From an uncultured Candidatus Binatia bacterium (GTDB taxonomy: Bacteria > Desulfobacterota > Binatia > Bin18): DNA of 64,000 nt. The notes below the pieces were generated by a model. That model was not told the DNA's origin. It made no database searches and worked only from the letters and a program-made list of their open reading frames with translations. A program made the translations under genes and the position numbers. Positions 24,237 to 33,257 of this stretch are shown here, piece after piece. Within the stretch, counting starts at the first letter, position 1; each line of letters starts with the position of its first letter. The stretch spans positions 448,001-512,000 of the forward strand of contig OZ243961.1 in the NCBI GenBank assembly GCA_965214605.1. Reading direction: 5' to 3'.

Positions 24237-24489
24237 CGGCAAATCCGGGACTTGAGTGGTCGGTCTGGTGCTATCCGCCAGAACGGCCGACGTTCGTTCG
24301 CGCTCGCCCACGGACCATCATGACAAAGCAAACGCTATAGCGGAGGGACTCCGCTTCCTTCTTGACCGTCCTGCCCTTCTGGGCTCAAGGTCTGAACGGT
24401 ATTCGGAATGCCATGAAGAGTGGAGGGCATGGTGGACTTGCATAAAAGCAAAACGGGAGAGAGCTTCAAGCGCGAAAGGAGGCAGGACG

Positions 24490-24990
24490 ATGTCTGAGTA
24501 CACCACAGTGTTTGGCTCACTTGACCGCTACGAAAAAGGGCAGCTCGAAATTATCGAGGACGATCCGCGCCACTATGCTTTTTCCAACATTTTCGAGGTG
24601 GCGGCCCAGGCTCAGCCGTATGAAAAGATTGCAGTGGCCAAAAACCTGGAATACGTTGTCGAGGTTATCCGCGCCGAGGGCCGCTCAGATTGGTTTATGT
24701 GCGCGCACGACGAGTTTGTCGTGGTGTTGGATGGCCAGGTGGAGATTCATCTGCTGAAATCCGACGACCCGCGTTCTCTGCTGGCCCAGGACGTTCACGG
24801 GGCGGTCCGCGTTCCCGGCACACCGATCGGCCGCAAAATGGGTTGGATGAAACTACGCCGTGGCCATCAAGCCCTGCTCCCCGCAGACGCAGCCTATCAG
24901 TTTGTTGCAGAACAGCCCGGTGTCATCGTCCTGCAAACCCTGCACGGCACGCTCACCATTGAGAAGTGGGCCGAGGTATGCGAGGTGTAA
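24490..24990 (+). CDS. Hydroquinone 1,2-dioxygenase small subunit (PnpC/HapC-like)
   Basis: TVFGSL..YEKG, YAFSNIFEVA, AKNLEYV, cupin motif HDEF; RBS AGGAGG. Confidence 0.85.
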   Translation: MSEYTTVFGSLDRYEKGQLEIIEDDPRHYAFSNIFEVAAQAQPYEKIAVAKNLEYVVEVIRAEGRSDWFMCAHDEFVVVLDGQVEIHLLKSDDPRSLLAQDVHGAVRVPGTPIGRKMGWMKLRRGHQALLPADAAYQFVAEQPGVIVLQTLHGTLTIEKWAEVCEV

Positions 24991-25016
24991 AACAACATTC
25001 TCAGAGGAGAGGCCTT

Positions 25017-26000
25017 ATGCTTAGCGCTTCAGTACCTCATCCCACCACCGGCTATAAAAGCTTTCAACTCGGCAGATTTTCGTTTAGCCGGGACGAATAT
25101 TTTGTGACTCTTAGCTGGCCCGTCCGAGAAATCCAACTGTCCCATACTATGCCGGTCGACGCGTTTCTGCGGGCGCTCGTCCGAGACGTGGCCTGGAACT
25201 TCTTCTATGGCTGGGTTAATTTCGACACCGTATTCGGTACGCGGAACCGGTACGGCCGCGTGGAGCTATACGCCGGTCGCTATAACGAGAGCTACCACCG
25301 GGCCGGCCTTGACTATGTCGAGAGTTTTGACACCCTCCAGATTCTCGAGACATTTCAAGGCATGCTGGCCGACTGGACCAACGCCGACTTTGATCCCTTT
25401 GCCGCTCCGACTGAGACTAGTACGTCCGTCTTTGGCAAAAAAAACGGCGACAATACTGCGGCGATTGAACGCCAGCGGGAGGTGTGTAAACGCATGCCGG
25501 GTTTACCCGGAGATGCGTCCCTGCGAACGGATGAGAATGGCTATACGGTCAACCGGGCGTTTGCCGACGTGGACCAAGATGAGCCCGAAGTCTATGCAGA
25601 GCCCGGCTTTGAGAACGAAGTCCACGCCTTCAATCTGTTCAAGTATCTGTCACGATCCGACGTCACCTGGAATCCGTCGGTTGTGTCGGTCTGCCGCAAC
25701 AGTCTGTTCTGTCCTACCACCGAGGAGCATATCCTGCCCGTCATTCACGGCAACGATCGGGTCGAGTGGTTCATTCAACTCAGCGATCAGATTACCTGGC
25801 AGATCAGCGACAAAGAAACCGGCCGCCCCCGGGCACGGGTCATCATGAAGCCGGGCGATGTAGCGGCCATGCCGGCCGATATTCGCCATCAGGGCTTCTC
25901 GCCCAAACGGGCCATGTTACTCGTGTGGGAAAACGCCACGCCGGGTTTGGCCGACAAATATGACGCGGGTGAGCTGTCGCCCTACCCGATTGAGCCATAG
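25017..26000 (+). CDS. Hydroquinone 1,2-dioxygenase large subunit (PnpD/HapD-like)
   Basis: FLRALVRDVAWNFFYGWVNFD; Fe-ligand region HGNDRVEWF and DIRHQG. Confidence 0.88.
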   Translation: MLSASVPHPTTGYKSFQLGRFSFSRDEYFVTLSWPVREIQLSHTMPVDAFLRALVRDVAWNFFYGWVNFDTVFGTRNRYGRVELYAGRYNESYHRAGLDYVESFDTLQILETFQGMLADWTNADFDPFAAPTETSTSVFGKKNGDNTAAIERQREVCKRMPGLPGDASLRTDENGYTVNRAFADVDQDEPEVYAEPGFENEVHAFNLFKYLSRSDVTWNPSVVSVCRNSLFCPTTEEHILPVIHGNDRVEWFIQLSDQITWQISDKETGRPRARVIMKPGDVAAMPADIRHQGFSPKRAMLLVWENATPGLADKYDAGELSPYPIEP

Positions 26001-26048
26001 CCTCCTGACACATCTCACCCGGCCCTTCGAGTCTTGTCGTGGTCTAGC

Positions 26049-26924
26049 CTACACGGCCTGCGCCCGCTCCACGATCAGTGCCACCCGGTCGATACAGCCA
26101 AATGGGTTGCCCTCAGCGATCTCTTTGGCAAACGGCTGTGAGAAGAGGACGATCCGTCTCGCTCCCGCATCCCGAAAGGCGGCTAACTCGTCGGCTGACA
26201 GCGCACCATCTTTTGGATCGACAAACGCCGACATCTCAAGCGCGTCTGGGTCGCGCCCAGCCTCTTTGGTCATGTCTCGAATCTTATTCACTTTGCTTTT
26301 ATAGTCCTCGGGATCAAACGCGAGCGGACACCATCCGTCATAGGTGCGGGCGACCCGTTCCAACGCTTTTGGCACGTGTCCGCCCAAGAAGATCGGCGGA
26401 CCGGACGGTTGGGTCGGTTTGGGGTCGCAATACACGGGTGGAAACTGGACCATTTCGCCCTGATAGCTGGGCTCGTCTTGGGTCCAGCAGATACGCAGCG
26501 CCTCGGTTGTCTCGCGCAGGCGTCTCCAGCGCAGCCGAAAACTGGTGCCCATGACCTCGGTCTCTTCTCGCAGCCAGCCCGCCCCAACCCCAATCATGAC
26601 CCGGCCGTTAGAGTACATGTCGAGACTGGCAATAACTTTGGCTGTGATCAGCGGTTCACGTTCCGGGAATAAACAAATGCCGGTCGCCAGCTTGAGCCGC
26701 GAGGTCACCGCCGCGGCCATGGTCAGGGCTACAAACGGGTCTGCCCAACGATTGTAGTGCCGGGGCAGAGTGCCCCCGCCCGGCACCTCGGTTTTGAAGC
26801 CGACCGGAATCACCGGATGTTCTGGAATCCACAGCGACTCAAAGCCAAGGCTCTCCACCCGCTGGGCAATTTCGGCGATATTCTTGGTATCAGACGTAGC
26901 TGGAACGAGAATGCCAATCTGCAT
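26049..26924 (-). CDS. LLM class F420-dependent oxidoreductase
   Basis: GFESLWIPEHPVIP, DPFVAL, GVGAGWLREE. Confidence 0.9.
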   Translation of the reverse strand: MQIGILVPATSDTKNIAEIAQRVESLGFESLWIPEHPVIPVGFKTEVPGGGTLPRHYNRWADPFVALTMAAAVTSRLKLATGICLFPEREPLITAKVIASLDMYSNGRVMIGVGAGWLREETEVMGTSFRLRWRRLRETTEALRICWTQDEPSYQGEMVQFPPVYCDPKPTQPSGPPIFLGGHVPKALERVARTYDGWCPLAFDPEDYKSKVNKIRDMTKEAGRDPDALEMSAFVDPKDGALSADELAAFRDAGARRIVLFSQPFAKEIAEGNPFGCIDRVALIVERAQAV

Positions 26925-26940
26925 CTTGTCTTCCCCCTTT

Positions 26941-28098
26941 TTAGTCCATTCGGATACTATCCATCGGTAGCAAAAAGGCCCACAGGTCGCGTCGGACGCC
27001 GGCATTTTTCATGGCCAGCTGAGCCGAACGGATGACCTCGCCGGCCTTGGTCGAGTCCCGATACCAGCGGGTGCTGGCCCAGGCCGCCGGCGTGTGCTCG
27101 GCGATGGCCAGCGCCGCGGTCTCATAATACCCCCGGATGTCCTGGGCCACCCGAGCCGGGACGCCGGGGATCTTGGCCTCTTTCCACGGCGTGCCTTGGG
27201 CAATCCGGATAAATGCCTCAAGCGCCTGCGGAATATTGTCGGGCTTGACCGTGCGCGTGGCGGCGACCCGCTCGCCGTGTTCGGCAACCGCCCGATCGTA
27301 GGCAGTTCGCAGACCGCGCGCCTCATCTACCGCGGGATGGGCGTCAGGATCATAGCGGGCTGGCAGAGGGCAGACTAAAATCTCCGAGCCCTGGTCAGCC
27401 ACCCGCTCGGGAAAATCTTCCAGAACCGGCTTGGAGTGCTCTAGCAGGGAGAATCCATGCGCTAGCACCCGATGCTGAAAGGCCGCATCACCAGGCTTGC
27501 CAAGCGGGCGGCCGAGCGGGAAGTCGCAGAACAGGCCGCGCGGTGGGGCCGTGTTGAGGAGCTGTTCACGAATGGATCCGAGCACAATCGTTGCCATACC
27601 AGCCGCCTCAAAAATGTGGGCCAGCGTACTCACGGTACGCGTGCACAGCGGTCACACCGGGGTGAGCACGACAACATCAACACCCCGCTCACGCAGATAG
27701 GACGCGCCAGCCGGGCCGCCGTCCATGCGGATCTGGTCCAGGTCAAACTGGTTGCCGGCATAGGCCAAGTGCCGCTCGGCCACCTGACCGATCGTGCCCT
27801 GGGCGGCGAGCTCATTGAGCCGATCAATCGGGAACACCACATTCAGGTCAAGCGCCACGCCCGAGGTATCGAAGTTCGGACTCCAGTGACCAACCAAATA
27901 GTCACGCCGCGCTCCGTCGAGCACTCGATAGCTGGTATCCATCGGTGCAAAATCATCCTGCTCAGGATGGTGGAGCGAGGCCGATGTCACCAGCGCGACA
28001 GTCGCCCGCTCCAGCGACGGGGAAGCGCTAAAGGCCGGATTATCAAACACCGGACACTCAATGTTACGGACCGCGTCTTTAATCTCAGTATCAGACAT
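26941..28098 (-). CDS. GrdB/PrdB-like selenoprotein (385 aa, Sec at residue 149)
   Basis: ORFs 27652..28098 and 26941..27633 are in one frame joined through a single TGA: VVLTPV-U-PLCTRTVSTLAH (UxxC); GrdB/PrdB-type motifs VALVTSA and DLNVVFPIDRL; hairpin 11 nt after the UGA. Confidence 0.9.
27622..27654 (-). promoter_or_regulatory. Candidate bacterial SECIS element
   Basis: UGA, then 11 nt, then GCGUAC-CGUGA-GUACGC: a perfect 6-bp stem with GU in the loop. Confidence 0.8.
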
Positions 28099-28107
28099 GC
28101 GACCTCC

Positions 28108-29307
28108 TCAGTCGAGTTTGTAGACTCTGGCCACGTTCTCGCTCAGGATGCCACGCCGGGCCACGTCGGTCATCGGCGCCACCATCTCGCCCAATTCTTC
28201 TAAATAATTGTCAGGGTGGTCGGGATGGGGATAATCACTGGCCCAGAAAAACTTGTCCTCGCCGATAATACCGGTCAGCGCACTAATGGTCCGTTCTTCC
28301 GGGTCGGCCGAGATATAGCACTGGCGCTTGAAGTAATACGAAGGCGCGTTTTTGAGCCTGACTGTTGCACTGAGCGTCGTACCTTTGAAGATGGCGTCGG
28401 CCCGGTCTAGGAAGTAGCCGATCCAGCCTGCTTGCGATTCTAAGACCACGGTACGCAAGCGCGGGAAGCGCTCAAAGACGCCAAGCTGAAAAAAGGTGGC
28501 AAAGGCGTGCTGCACGCCCTGACCGGCAAACAGATCATTATACCAAGCCGCCCAGCCAAACTTGTCATAGCGATGGTGGATGCTGAACTCAGGCGGCTCA
28601 AAGGTTGGATGAATGGCCAGCGGCACGTCGAGGTCTTGGGCCGCCGCAAAGACCGCATCGTGGCGCGGGTCGCCATGCGGGACGCGCGTAATCGTAAACG
28701 GAGCCACAAAGGCGCCTTTACAGCCGTCCTTGACGGCCCGCTGTAGCTCGCGGGCGGCCTCTTCGGGCTCGCCCAAGGAGAGATGAGCAATCGGCACTAG
28801 CCGACCGCCGGAATCACGACAGAAGTCGGCGATCCAACGGTTGTAGGCCCGACAATAGGCGGCCGACAGTTCGGCATCGAACAGCTCGGCTTCCCACAAC
28901 AGGCCGATCGTCGGATACAGAATGGCCTTCTCCATGCCCTCCTGTTCAAGGAGTTCCAGCCGCTCCTTCATATCCATCGTGCCAAACGCCGCGCCTCTCA
29001 GGTAGGTCTGCTCGGGTTCTATCCGGATGGCCCGAATGTCTTCCGGGCTGACTTCACCGTCCATGGCCCTACGGCGCAGCTGCTGCGCCTCCTCAATCTG
29101 CTTGCCCATGCCGCCCAACGTGCCCAGCATCCCAGGTTTGACCAGCTTGGCCCGCCTTTGATCGACCTCCAGATACTCATAGCCGTCCTCGCCGACCCGT
29201 AACCGCAGAGCCCGACCACGGTACTGCGATTCGAGATAGGTCTCCCACAAATCGGGCGGTTCTAGAATATGCCCATCGCAATCAATCACTACAGGTTCTA
29301 CCGTCAT
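28108..29307 (-). CDS. Amidohydrolase family protein (Amidohydro_2)
   Basis: IDCDGHILEP, AIHP, VLESQAGW, WASDYPHPD; RBS GGAGG before ATG 29307. Confidence 0.92.
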   Translation of the reverse strand: MTVEPVVIDCDGHILEPPDLWETYLESQYRGRALRLRVGEDGYEYLEVDQRRAKLVKPGMLGTLGGMGKQIEEAQQLRRRAMDGEVSPEDIRAIRIEPEQTYLRGAAFGTMDMKERLELLEQEGMEKAILYPTIGLLWEAELFDAELSAAYCRAYNRWIADFCRDSGGRLVPIAHLSLGEPEEAARELQRAVKDGCKGAFVAPFTITRVPHGDPRHDAVFAAAQDLDVPLAIHPTFEPPEFSIHHRYDKFGWAAWYNDLFAGQGVQHAFATFFQLGVFERFPRLRTVVLESQAGWIGYFLDRADAIFKGTTLSATVRLKNAPSYYFKRQCYISADPEERTISALTGIIGEDKFFWASDYPHPDHPDNYLEELGEMVAPMTDVARRGILSENVARVYKLD

Positions 29308-29821
29308 AATCCTCCGTCCTCTCACGTCTTGTTCGTGCACCCGCAGATCAATCATGCTTACGGGAGGCTCGTCAAGTAGCCTGGCCGTGTTTCTGAGTCT
29401 CCACCTCTCTGGTGCGGGAAAAGGATGCGCGGCGAGCCCAGCGCACCTCTCGGCGCTCTCCCCTGAGGTCACAAGATACCGGCACCTTTCCTCAATACGC
29501 CGGTAGTGAGCCATCGCGCTTGTCGACGAGGCCGGAATGGAATTGGAACGCTTTTGCGTCCGACGCGGCATCGACCTCGAATTGGAACTCCAGCACATAT
29601 GGGCTCGGCGTAGTACCGCAAGTCAAATGCCGGATCACACTCGCGTGCTTACCCCGGTCACGTTCGCAAGCCGCCGCAGCCGTGTGTCATCGGCTCAGTC
29701 GGGTGGTCAGATTCGGCTGCACTCACACATATATTTGATTTGCCTGGAAAAGACTTCTCCTCAAGAGAGCACGCTGCTCAAAGCATGATTGCAGGAAACG
29801 AATCATTGCTGGCAGTGTGTC

Positions 29822-30130
29822 CTATAATTTCTTCGCCAAGTAAAAACGTATGGACTCGCTGCTAGTTTCGATCTGACCGGCAAAAGAGCTGAGTACAGTT
29901 TCCAGCTCTTGCATCTGAAAGGGTCGCCCCAAACAGGCTTCCAGCGTCTTGCGACGAATGATGCATTCATCCTGTGTCTCAACCCGGATATAAGCCGTGT
30001 GATCCTCAATACTGATCTCTTGGTCAGGATTATCCTGATAGATGGCCTCAACGGCTGCGTCAGCGATCTCCCCAGCGCTCAGGACCGGGCCAACCGTATT
30101 CCTGCCCTCCGTACCCATAAGACGGCTCAC
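29822..30130 (-). CDS. tmoD: Diiron monooxygenase effector protein (TmoD/MmoB family)
   Basis: NTVGPVL, DNPDQEI, AYIRV, LSSFAGQI. Confidence 0.92.
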   Translation of the reverse strand: MSRLMGTEGRNTVGPVLSAGEIADAAVEAIYQDNPDQEISIEDHTAYIRVETQDECIIRRKTLEACLGRPFQMQELETVLSSFAGQIETSSESIRFYLAKKL

Positions 30131-30465
30131 ACCCCAACCCGCCGGGGCTCAACACCGGCAACATCAACATAGACCTCGTCACCCTCAATCTTGACCGGAT
30201 AGCGTGCTAGCCCGCAGTCATCGGGATTGATGCCTCTCCCGGTGGTCACATCGAACTCCCAGCGGTGCGAGTTGCAGATGAGCACCCGCCGTCCGTCGAA
30301 CTCACCGGCAGAGAGTGGGAAACTCTGGTGCGGACACTCGCCCTGTATAGCGATCAGCTCACCATCCCTAGGATAGACAAGGACAATGGTTTGTCCGTCG
30401 ACCTCGAACTCGGCGAGGTCGCCCTCCCAGACCTCGTCCACACGACACACCCGGATAAACGCCAT
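30127..30465 (-). CDS. tmoC: Rieske ferredoxin of a toluene-type monooxygenase
   Basis: CPH...CNSH Rieske ligands, VWEG, GRGINP..C.LARYPVK. Confidence 0.92.
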   Translation of the reverse strand: MAFIRVCRVDEVWEGDLAEFEVDGQTIVLVYPRDGELIAIQGECPHQSFPLSAGEFDGRRVLICNSHRWEFDVTTGRGINPDDCGLARYPVKIEGDEVYVDVAGVEPRRVGV

Positions 30466-30481
30466 CGTCTTTCGCCCCTCT

Positions 30482-31480
30482 TCAGGACAGCCCAATCTCC
30501 AAATTCGACACAAAAGTGCGGACTGCGCCTTTTGCCGTGTCCGCCGCCTGTGGACTGTCGGGCAATGCTCGGCAGTAGGCCTCAATCGCCCGGTCTGCCG
30601 GTTCGAGCCACTTCTCGACCCAACCATGCATCACCGCGATATTGTTGGGCTGTTGGGCAGCAAACCGCACTAAGGCCGCAGTCCAGGTCCGCGAACGCTG
30701 GACATCACGGTACTCTGAATCGGCAATCAGGCCCAGCAGGCTATCCGCGTGAGCCCGCGCCGTTTCGGCCAGCTGGCCTACCACTGCCTCATCAAGCGCG
30801 GGCTTGGCCACCAGATTCAGCGCCACAAAACTCTCCCCCCAATCGTAGGCAACCAAGAGGTGTTCCATCAGCCGCCGAAACCCCTGCCAGGCTGCGTCAT
30901 TCTCCCAGCGCTGGCGTTCTGCGCTGCCAAAACCCGCATCTGGATAGGTCTGCTTGAGTTCGGCCGTGCGGTAGGCAAGGTGGGACACACACCGCATGGC
31001 ATCAGCAGCCTGGTACAGAGCGCAGTTCCGGATCGTACTAGACGGAACTATCTGGACCAGATAGTGGGAGGCCATCTGCACGGTATGGAAGACGTAGCGG
31101 GCAGGACTGTACAAGCGTGCCAGCACGTCCACCCAGGTCGGATCAAGGGCTGCGTCGTAGTGCCGCTCGTTGTGCTGGTCAAGCAGGCCCTCGACATAGG
31201 TCTCCTGCTGGTCCTGAAGAATATTATACGCCCGATATGTCATCTCATCTGGATCACGAAAAGCCTCCCAGTCACAATCCCGGAAGGGAGAGCCGTGTCG
31301 GTACCGTTTGAACCATTGGGACAGCGGAATGTTGGGGCCAAGCTCAAACGGCGACTCCTCATTCTTGGCGTTGTACATGAGATTGGTCGAGACAATCTCA
31401 TACTCGCTCGGACGCCGCCGGCGGTCGGCCAGATGGCTCCAGGTTCGGAGCGGCTTGAGGGATTCTGATGCCTTACTCAT
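30482..31480 (-). CDS. tmoE: Toluene-type monooxygenase hydroxylase beta subunit
   Basis: LKPLRTWSHL..RRRRPSEYEIVS, FRDPD, WQGFRRLME, YDWGESF. Confidence 0.93.
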   Translation of the reverse strand: MSKASESLKPLRTWSHLADRRRRPSEYEIVSTNLMYNAKNEESPFELGPNIPLSQWFKRYRHGSPFRDCDWEAFRDPDEMTYRAYNILQDQQETYVEGLLDQHNERHYDAALDPTWVDVLARLYSPARYVFHTVQMASHYLVQIVPSSTIRNCALYQAADAMRCVSHLAYRTAELKQTYPDAGFGSAERQRWENDAAWQGFRRLMEHLLVAYDWGESFVALNLVAKPALDEAVVGQLAETARAHADSLLGLIADSEYRDVQRSRTWTAALVRFAAQQPNNIAVMHGWVEKWLEPADRAIEAYCRALPDSPQAADTAKGAVRTFVSNLEIGLS

Positions 31481-31727
31481 AGTACAGTTCAATACTGCTC
31501 AGCGGTCCAAGACCGGCTTGGGCGACGGTCATATCGGGTGGAAACGGCTCGGGGGCCCCAACTGCGCGCACGCGCAGCACCCTGTCAGCCCGTTTGTTTT
31601 TCTCAAAGCCGATGCTCAGGGCCGCCGCCATCTCGCATATCTCGTCCATAGTATTCTCGCTATCCACCACGGACAGATACAGGACGAACTCATCGTGAAG
31701 ATTATGCACGAGCGGAATCTGTGCCAT
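31473..31727 (-). CDS. tmoB: Toluene-type monooxygenase hydroxylase gamma subunit
   Basis: 84 aa; DSENTMDEI and PFPPDMTVAQAGL.P motifs; directly after the alpha subunit. Confidence 0.85.
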   Translation of the reverse strand: MAQIPLVHNLHDEFVLYLSVVDSENTMDEICEMAAALSIGFEKNKRADRVLRVRAVGAPEPFPPDMTVAQAGLGPLSSIELYYE

Positions 31728-31739
31728 GAGCCTCCCCTG

Positions 31740-33257
31740 TCAGGTGGCCCTGGCGCGAGCCTCGCGGTAGGCTTCGATCCAGCTGTGCTTGAGTGCGTCC
31801 CCACCCTGCTCGCCCTGGTGTAAATCGAAGTAGGCGAGCAAACCGTCGAGCGTGGGCGGCTGAATCATACCGGCCATCATACGGTCGGCGACACTCAGAT
31901 GGTCTTGGTAACGGTCAGGGTCTTGCTGAAAAATCCAGCGATCCACCTCAGACCCAAAGTGATAGGTCCGGCCGTTGTGTTCGAACGGATAGTCTTTGAG
32001 CGGCCGCCCGGTTTTGCCCGGAGCCCAGCCTGGCGTTCCAGTCACCGGTACCTGAGACATATTACACAGCGGAATCATGATCGGTAGGACGGTTTCGACC
32101 GGTCCGTCTTTGACAAAGCGCTCAATGATCGGGTCCCAGAAGTGGGTGCCCCAGGTCTCCTCCCAGCCCGGATATTTTTCTTCCAGCCATTCCCGCTCGG
32201 CCGGGCTGACCCCAGGCGGCACGTCCCACCAGACGGACTGGTGAAAGGTCCAGATACCGGCGTGCATACCGTGGTGGCGGGTATTCAGGTCGTTCAGCAT
32301 AATGTCCCAATACCACGGCCGATCCAGACCAATATCAATCAGGGTCCGTTCAAACTGCCCGAAGACCCACTCAAGCATAAATTCCTTAAAGGATTGTTGG
32401 CGGCGATCAAGCGGCGTGTAGTAGTCCATTGACGGACCGGTCACTGTGGCGAACAAGGTCCAAGCCCGCCACATGGCAACATCGACCAAGTGCTGGGCGT
32501 ACTCTTGGTGGCCGTGTTCAATGAGAATTTTCACGGCCGGACCGCCGATCTGGGCGTGGCGTGCCTCGTCGGTCTGGATACTGGAGGCCAGATTTGAAAA
32601 CACCATATCGCCCGCCTTGGCCGCGTCGGCCGCCAAGCCCAAGAACTGGAGGTTTGAAAACCCGGTCTCAAAGGCAAAGGTCAGCATAACCGCCACCCCA
32701 ACCGCGTCGCGTGCCGACATAATATCGTCAAACAGATGGCGGGCCGCCACTACCGCCCATTCGTTGGTATGCATAGACTTAGCCGCCCAATCGAACTGAC
32801 GGCTGCGCTGGACGTGCTCGTGCGGAAAATAGAGCTGAATCTGGCCATGGCGGTTTTCATCTAAGGAGCCAAAGGTCGCCATATTCCGCATGCCGCCGGC
32901 CTTGCCAAAGCGGGCCATGCGCGATTCGGCACCTGACGCCATAGCCTCAAGAATCGCAAACGCCCCGTAGTGGAGTTTCAGGATACTGGTCCAACCCGCC
33001 TCGGCCGTATCCAGAAAATTGGCCCGTTGCAGGGCGGCTTTGACCGCATACACCCCCGCGTCTTTTTCCCGCTGAGTACGCACGTACTCTCGATACCCCA
33101 CCTTATAGGGCTCATCATAGCGGTCCCAGGTCTCAAGCGACAAACCCAACGCGCCGCTCTGCTCCTCGGGAAAGAGGTCGTCTTCGGTAACATAGGTTGG
33201 GCTCCAGTTGGTCGAGCGGGCGATATCGTACCAGTCGGCGCGATTGAGCAGAGCCAT
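31740..33257 (-). CDS. tmoA: Toluene-type (group 1) soluble diiron monooxygenase alpha subunit
   Basis: MALL.R.DWYD.AR.TNW start, two DExRH diiron motifs (DENRH, DEARH), FAFETGF, C-terminal YHS-like region. Confidence 0.95.
   Translation of the reverse strand: MALLNRADWYDIARSTNWSPTYVTEDDLFPEEQSGALGLSLETWDRYDEPYKVGYREYVRTQREKDAGVYAVKAALQRANFLDTAEAGWTSILKLHYGAFAILEAMASGAESRMARFGKAGGMRNMATFGSLDENRHGQIQLYFPHEHVQRSRQFDWAAKSMHTNEWAVVAARHLFDDIMSARDAVGVAVMLTFAFETGFSNLQFLGLAADAAKAGDMVFSNLASSIQTDEARHAQIGGPAVKILIEHGHQEYAQHLVDVAMWRAWTLFATVTGPSMDYYTPLDRRQQSFKEFMLEWVFGQFERTLIDIGLDRPWYWDIMLNDLNTRHHGMHAGIWTFHQSVWWDVPPGVSPAEREWLEEKYPGWEETWGTHFWDPIIERFVKDGPVETVLPIMIPLCNMSQVPVTGTPGWAPGKTGRPLKDYPFEHNGRTYHFGSEVDRWIFQQDPDRYQDHLSVADRMMAGMIQPPTLDGLLAYFDLHQGEQGGDALKHSWIEAYREARARAT

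Follow-up and report, generated by a model that had tools for sequence, protein, structure and literature searches.

Do two adjoining open reading frames (ORFs) on the minus strand of a Candidatus Binatia contig code for two proteins, or are they one selenoprotein gene whose in-frame UGA has been taken for a stop? We asked this for positions 26941-28098 of a stretch of 64,000 nucleotides (the window: assembly GCA_965214605.1, contig OZ243961.1, positions 448,001 to 512,000), where an original prediction, made from the letters of the DNA, had proposed a hidden selenoprotein of the GrdB/PrdB family. Our answer is that 28098-26941 is very probably one gene, split in the annotation, which codes for a selenoprotein of the GrdB/PrdB superfamily with selenocysteine (Sec) at codon 149. 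The elements of this gene are the following:

26941..28098, minus strand: the selenoprotein gene, taken from the reading frames, with 385 codons plus a TAA stop (26943-26941) and its ATG at 28098-28096.
28103..28107, minus strand: a GGAGG ribosome-binding site, 4 nt ahead of the ATG and directly behind the TGA stop of the upstream gene (28110-28108).
27652..27654, minus strand: UGA codon 149, here read as selenocysteine, with C as the next base (UGAC).

The N-terminal ORF (28098..27652, minus strand) encodes 148 aa and is terminated by the TGA at 27654-27652. The C-terminal ORF (27633..26941, minus strand) encodes 230 aa from a GTG placed in the same frame, 6 codons past the TGA, and the frame after the TGA remains open for 236 further codons up to the TAA at 26943-26941. 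When the TGA is translated as U, a single product of 385 aa is obtained, ...GVDVVVLTPV-U-PLCTRTVSTLAHIFEAAG..., which carries the motif LTPV-U-PLC-TRTV. The original prediction had described precisely this arrangement, 148 + 1 + 6 + 230 = 385 aa in one frame, and all its coordinates and counts are correct. A scan of 25800-30300 for promoters and terminators gave nothing above shuffled sequences.

If the TGA were a real stop, the locus would consist of two genes (148 aa and about 218-230 aa) or of a pseudogene. Public gene calls do give such halves, and the window's own product is found in the databases only as a 218-aa half (P0002); furthermore, a GAGG precedes Met168. Nevertheless, the comparison with other genomes points in the opposite direction. 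We searched 61 genomes, the window's own and 60 relatives, with the read-through protein and found 27 near-full-length matches with 37-100% identity in 25 Binatia genomes, and every one of the 27 has exactly one internal TGA. From a public species-genome collection we retrieved 80 loci that span Candidatus Binatia, Entotheonella, Gammaproteobacteria, Acidimicrobiia, Chloroflexota and Acidobacteriota, the orthologues coming in large part from marine and sponge-associated metagenome-assembled genomes of Acidimicrobiia and Gammaproteobacteria. The Sec site is included in 79 of these loci (L099 is a C-terminal fragment only), and its codon is TGA in 76 and TGC in three (L102, L104, L107). Complete genes numbered 68, with lengths of 378-419 aa, and 65 of them have the TGA.

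The stretch behind the codon was compared codon by codon. Over the 14 codons 3' of the TGA the entropy was 0.55 at the first codon position, 0.15 at the second and 1.01 at the third, and Pro150 is invariant while all four Pro codons occur. This is the pattern of a coding region under purifying selection. Conservation with synonymous variation extends across six phyla and includes the frame, the site and the residues (PLCTRTVSTLAHIFEAAG) that separate the TGA from the next start; fused forms with Cys at the site also exist. In addition, contigs from the runs of three studies, one of them possibly the source, cover codon 149 and all carry the TGA unchanged. All this argues against a real stop, and we regard two separate genes or a pseudogene as extremely improbable.

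Some loci showed other irregularities. In two Entotheonella loci (L044, L065) the match length cannot be divided by three, and only 46-68 codons are open ahead of the Sec codon; their N-terminal part seems to contain a frameshift or an assembly error. We also found lone C-terminal pieces that lack the N-terminal domain, namely L099 on a Binatia chromosome (residues 202-383) and G031:C1:1177352-1177510 (residues 331-383), both of them probably gene remnants.

Regarding the RNA behind the UGA, the original prediction had placed there a stem-loop of the bacterial Sec insertion sequence (SECIS) type, GCGUAC/CGUGA/GUACGC:

27622..27643, minus strand: SECIS hairpin, with core stem 27640-27635 / 27629-27624, loop 27634-27630 and C27641 bulged.

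The hairpin does start exactly 11 nt after the UGA, the separating nucleotides being 27651-27641. The extension of the stem by CA/UG that had also been proposed is present, but only if C27641 bulges out; its A27642-U27623 pair is conserved in 66 of 67 sequences and C27643-G27622 is not conserved. These 67 sequences are the distinct 45-nt stretches of Sec forms that we aligned. The named structure pairs in 98.5% of the cells of this alignment, whereas slid registers reach 1-61%. Changes on both sides of a pair were found in 23 cells, against 4.6 +/- 1.8 in shuffled alignments, and none of 500 shuffles reached 23. For instance, in the numbering of the alignment, pair 18-28 is UA in 50 sequences, CG in 13 and UG in 3, and pair 19-27 is AU in 57, GC in 9 and GU in one. 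The second position of the loop is an invariant G and the third is U in at least 90%. All six core pairs are formed in 62 of the 67 Sec forms, and 62 of the 67 fold at -7.5 kcal/mol or below. Moreover, codon 158 always ends in G although its residue varies (T, A, V, M), and this points to a constraint at the RNA level.

In the published model of bacterial SECIS elements, as a 2026 review quotes it (PMC13188914), the loop has 3-9 nt with a G in its first two positions, the stem has 4-16 bp, the distance between UGA and loop is 16-37 nt and the minimum free energy is -7.5 kcal/mol or lower. The hairpin of the window agrees with it in every respect: its loop of 5 nt has G in second place with U next to it, its stem has 6 bp plus the extension, the loop lies 17 nt from the UGA and the energy is -8.5 kcal/mol. 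The three Cys forms retain only one or two of the seven hairpin pairs in this register. An Rfam search of 27400-27800 at E <= 10 returned no SECIS family, only two rows at chance level.

Does the organism have the means to insert Sec? The genome of the window is 99.99% complete and contains selA (583 bits), selB (382 bits), selD (388 bits) and the tRNA-Sec gene selC (72 bits), all over their cut-offs. The selD gene adjoins selB (G000:C1:1899798-1902715, minus strand, loci L001 and L009) and the tRNA-Sec gene adjoins selA (C1:3624480-3625952). Actually, selD is a selenoprotein gene itself, with an in-frame TGA in ...KAAG-U-AGKLGP, and in selD, and likewise in a paralogue of our gene that this genome contains, there is a hairpin whose loop starts with G and begins about 17-18 nt past the UGA.

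This paralogue is a second, shorter PrdB-like gene (L033, G000:C1:1557245-1557805, minus strand). Its TGA lies in LLVPV-U-PVC-HQSV and is followed by a hairpin of 8 bp, in which the GUG loop starts 18 nt past the UGA. Most of the 61 genomes have short paralogues of this kind with a single TGA in each, and Cys forms of them are also found (P0169, P0240).

The UGA could be read through by another route, as Trp, Cys or Gly, either by near-cognate read-through or under a changed genetic code. UGA followed by C is generally known as a leaky context, and one relative (P0248) has W at the aligned place. However, TGA has its ordinary use in this DNA, since it terminates 8 of the 16 neighbouring ORFs that are supported by Pfam. 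Besides, the whole Sec machinery is present, the hairpin covaries and is of the SECIS type and spacing, and homologues carry at this position Cys, the residue that usually replaces Sec. We therefore consider a residue other than Sec very improbable, and Sec is the reading that we retain.

The homologues give the same picture from the side of the protein. A profile search of 1.84 billion protein representatives yielded 3861 relatives at E <= 0.001, 457 of them at E <= 1e-30, and the best 150 of the 3861 were used to count what happens at the site. The Sec column is crossed by 32 of these 150, of which 19 are full length. Another 103 start past column 149, 86 of them at profile positions 151-159. 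The remaining 15 do not extend beyond position 148, and 12 of these stop at positions 146-148. We examined 12 of the N-terminal fragment ends, and all fall at the aligned site, 9 of them with ...LTPV or ...LTPI as their closing residues. In all, 118 of these 150 proteins are halves that result from a cut at the Sec codon, which means that this gene and most of its relatives are wrongly annotated.

Among 18 full-length representatives examined, 16 have C at the site, the exceptions being P0133 and P0139. In the databases we found 10 full-length proteins with C at the site, of 385-458 aa and 45-50% identity, several of which carry the JGI name 'D-proline reductase (dithiol) PrdB'. A few full-length relatives differ at this place: P0140 has G, P0248 has W, and P0133 is without Cys. 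We also recognized a second subfamily of about 395-419 aa (L102-L113) in Gammaproteobacteria with genomes of the Pseudomonadales type. Its motif is FLTPV-U-PNC-TRAV (U/C-PNC) and its C-terminal region differs from that of the window protein; three Halieaceae-type members have Cys, encoded by TGC. The original prediction had named two findings that would speak against it, a genome that lacks the Sec machinery and homologues that do not align C or U at this codon. Both were looked into and neither goes against a selenoprotein: all four genes selA, selB, selC and selD are there, and U or C falls at exactly this codon.

What kind of protein is it? The product can be divided into two parts:

27397..28020, minus strand: alpha/beta PrdB/GrdB-like domain, residues 27-234, with U149-P-L-C152 and the invariant FPxGRPxGxP (193-202).
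26944..27396, minus strand: residues 235-385, a linker with the invariant Cys243 followed by a conserved helical domain (helices 255-373).

The Pfam family GRDB (PF07355) is matched over residues 25-146 with 23.6 bits, the cut-off being 22. Among the NCBIfam models PrdB (TIGR04483) fits best, with 112.2 bits against a cut-off of 300 and E 2.5e-32; this match covers residues 12-220 only, which correspond to profile positions 9-219 of 238. TIGR04483 is also the best NCBIfam match of all 31 aligned members of the family, with a best E-value of 1.7e-40, and the matches to the GrdF, GrdH and GrdB models are well below their cut-offs. Therefore, the protein is a divergent GrdB/PrdB relative, and the membership in the family that had been claimed is right in the wide sense given by GRDB, but it does not extend to PrdB as TIGR04483 defines it. 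Invariant across both subfamilies are U/C149, P150, C152, R154, FPxGRPxGxP (193-202), F207-Q208, C243, E259, D320, T350 and G353.

AlphaFold2 with the family alignment gave a model of pLDDT 92.5 and pTM 0.91, made of the alpha/beta domain (about 27-234) and the helical domain (helices 255-373). The long helical C-terminal extension noticed beforehand is thus real, and the family alignment indicates that it is conserved. A search of PDB sequences with the family profile found nothing below E 0.28, and Foldseek with the whole model found nothing at E <= 0.001. When the whole model was compared with 48,161 chains by VIA-align, the best Z was 8.7 (rmsd 3.2, 134 residues aligned); the matches were generic LacI, SDR and Rossmann-like folds and involved residues 27-234 only. 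The C-terminal domain folded alone (pLDDT 87.9) had a best VIA-align Z of 4.0 (rmsd 5.2, 74 aligned) and a best Foldseek E of 0.77. From the model, the C-terminal helical domain appears to be without a recognisable solved relative, which is not proof of a new fold.

A protein whose best model is PrdB might be the true PrdB subunit of a D-proline reductase of the Stickland type, with its partner genes elsewhere or too divergent. Apart from the TIGR04483 matches, this would agree with the position of Sec149, nearly at the place of Sec152 in the 242-aa PrdB of C. sticklandii (PMC3091704), and with the JGI label on the Cys forms. Nevertheless, the score stays at 112 bits where 300 are needed, and the protein has an extra domain of 150 residues. 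The original prediction had found no GrdA, GrdE or PrdA partner in the window, and for GrdE/PrdA the absence can now be extended to the genome: PF09338 has no match in the 99.99% complete genome of the window, and the 25 genomes that contain full-length matches to the selenoprotein have none either. The search is able to detect the family, because PF09338 was found at 268-340 bits in 3 of the 61 genomes (G017, G037 and G047). In these three relatives the PF09338 genes adjoin far more distant GrdB/PrdB-like genes, with only 20-47 bits to the window protein. GrdA (PF04723) likewise had no match in the genome of the window or in any of 14 control genomes, a search without a positive control.

The genes around the selenoprotein bear on the same question:

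30127-33257, minus strand: soluble di-iron monooxygenase, with alpha subunit (33257-31740), beta subunit (31492-30482) and Rieske protein (30627-30127).
28108..29598, minus strand: upstream gene of the same operon, Amidohydro_2 family, listed as an ORF of 496 aa, 9 nt upstream of the selenoprotein gene.
26049..26925, minus strand: downstream gene, luciferase-like (LLM) oxidoreductase, with a likely start at ATG 26925 behind AAGGGGGAAG.
24256-26000, plus strand: a pair of genes similar to hydroquinone 1,2-dioxygenase PnpC/PnpD, downstream and on the opposite strand.

The selenoprotein operon thus sits in an oxygen-dependent setting for the breakdown of hydrocarbons or aromatic compounds, as the di-iron monooxygenase and the hydroquinone dioxygenase show, and this does not fit a Stickland-type reductase. 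Taking the score, the extra domain, the partners and the neighbours together, we consider a true D-proline reductase subunit quite improbable. Since the essential pyruvoyl partner was not found, the label 'D-proline reductase' that the intact Cys forms carry is probably a misnomer in these aerobes.

Regarding the operon itself, the start of the LLM oxidoreductase lies 15 nt after the stop of the selenoprotein gene, and its orthologue at L034 begins at the matching place. The Amidohydro_2 relatives have about 400 aa and start with MT(V/A)EPVVIDCDGH, and the listed ORF is about 100 codons longer; its true start is therefore probably internal, near 29307. An Amidohydro_2 gene was seen in 14 of the 79 loci, and in 10 of the 79 it is directly upstream, on the same strand and within about 1.5 kb of the Sec codon; of these 10, two carry the label Enterobacteriaceae and the others the label Binatia. 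A dioxygenase gene of the TauD/TfdA family is adjacent in 10 loci of the second subfamily. The neighbours elsewhere include LLM, SDR, MFS, cupin, GST, FMN dehydrogenase, amidase, acyl-CoA ligase-type, AurF-like and sulfatase genes.

How might the protein be made and what might it do? SelB carrying Sec-tRNA(Sec) would bind the hairpin, with its N-G-U-N-N loop 17 nt from the UGA, and selenocysteine would be inserted. The product would be a stand-alone member of the GrdB/PrdB superfamily, in which a Rossmann-like domain with U149-x-x-C152 is joined to a helical C-terminal domain specific to the family. By analogy with PrdB, the selenolate may attack a small substrate at an electrophilic carbon or at another oxidised centre, and the adduct may then be resolved by Cys152 to a selenenylsulfide, which a thiol system could re-reduce, possibly via the invariant Cys243. 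The substrate is probably not D-proline, because no pyruvoyl partner (PrdA/GrdE) was found and the catabolic neighbourhoods change, and without such a partner the activation of the substrate must differ from that in D-proline reductase. On the same analogy, substrate binding or electron relay may be the task of the conserved C-terminal domain and Cys243.

The main functional rival keeps the selenoprotein and changes its task, into a general selenol/thiol redox protein such as a peroxidase, a disulfide-type reductase or an electron carrier for the neighbouring enzymes. UxxC is common among thiol-oxidoreductases (PMC1088965, Table 3), a reference cited in PMC3091704 names in its title a peroxidase activity of the selenoprotein GrdB, and the gene is frequent in aerobic marine lineages and has no fixed partner gene. 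However, the fold is not thioredoxin-like, its best matches being generic Rossmann-like ones with Z 7-8.7. With its strongly conserved FPxGRPxGxP and its large, likewise conserved C-terminal domain the protein seems to have a specific ligand site, and the gene is located within catabolic operons. For these reasons we think a general redox role unlikely. What we tentatively propose, as a possibility that may well turn out otherwise, is that the abundant 'PrdB' selenoprotein of aerobic bacteria from the sea and from sponges, the gene of the window included, is not a proline reductase but a self-contained Sec reductase of a new substrate class. In it the C-terminal domain and Cys243 would replace the pyruvoyl PrdA (or PrdC) in holding the substrate or relaying electrons, and the enzyme would serve the oxygen-dependent catabolism of small aromatic or nitrogenous compounds.

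Several points weigh against what has been argued here, from the Sec codon to the catalytic cycle. The support for Sec at residue 149 comes from the sequence level. The 71-nt region is not unusually stable (z = +0.87), as 165 of 200 shuffles fold at least equally well, and so the support for the hairpin comes from the covariation. This covariation is itself drawn from related sequences in a constrained coding region, and the shuffle control overstates it because the compensatory changes cluster in few lineages. Furthermore, the Cys form L102 has an alternative, weaker 7-bp hairpin shifted by 2 nt, with -5.1 kcal/mol in a 23-nt window and -7.3 in 55 nt. Regarding the family, the Pfam match to GRDB is marginal, although it is supported by the E-value to the related TIGR04483, and the model TIGR01918 (various_sel_PB) is not reached, with 32.6 bits against a cut-off of 65.45. 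Finally, no partner gene conserved across phyla was found among the 79 loci, and the catalytic cycle is pure analogy with PrdB.

The practical value of the finding lies in the annotation. As a consequence of the split, metabolic reconstructions of Binatia, marine Acidimicrobiia and Gammaproteobacteria miss the selenoenzyme or list two 'hypothetical proteins' in its place. This is a new member of an already known selenoprotein family and not a new kind of system. D-proline reductase is counted as a known selenoprotein family in reviews (PMC9312934, PMC13188914), and 'Proline reductase' is listed among the selenoproteins of Anaeromyxobacter and Geobacter (PMC1794560). For the Sargasso Sea, 'Proline reductase PrdB', with UxxC, is listed in third place by abundance among the selenoprotein families, with 42 Sec genes and one Cys homologue (PMC1088965). 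It is again listed among the top families of GOS, where 38 samples contained 235 Sec and 110 Cys sequences of it (PMC2398784). Since the family is among the commonest marine selenoproteins, its substrate, once found, would explain a sizeable share of marine selenium use. A literature search outside the subscription journals gave no paper on stand-alone PrdB relatives, and in the accessible text no passage separates the long form without a partner.

Compared by description and not by sequence, the gene of the window most likely belongs to this marine 'PrdB' family of Zhang, Gladyshev and co-workers (2005, 2008). Both have UxxC, pfam07355 and more Sec forms than Cys forms. In the accessible parts of those papers the family is filed simply as proline reductase, and the C-terminal domain, the missing PrdA and Binatia are not mentioned there.

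The GrdB/GrdF/GrdH proteins (PF07355, TIGR01918) are of the same superfamily, with weak matches over residues 13-207 and Sec at the equivalent site. They have about 435 aa, an N-terminal extension and UxxCxxC, and they work with GrdA and GrdE (PMC13188914), whereas in the window protein the extension is C-terminal, the motif is UxxC (UxxCxxxxC in some members) and no GrdE was found.

The clostridial PrdB (TIGR04483, 26 kDa) has an alpha/beta domain homologous to that of the window protein, and its Sec152 in UxxC lies at nearly the same position as Sec149 of the latter. In the mechanism proposed for it, D-proline is held on the pyruvoyl group of PrdA, the PrdB selenolate attacks the alpha-carbon and cleaves the C-N bond, a PrdB Cys resolves the selenoether to a selenide-sulfide and PrdC re-reduces it (PMC3091704). 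By analogy the chemistry of both proteins is likely the same, an attack by Sec followed by a selenenylsulfide with a nearby Cys. However, clostridial PrdB has 242 aa and no helical C-terminal domain (PMC3091704), whereas the window protein has 385 aa. The clostridial gene is part of the prd operon together with PrdA, and the gene of the window lies in an aerobic catabolic setting, in a genome where no PrdA was found.

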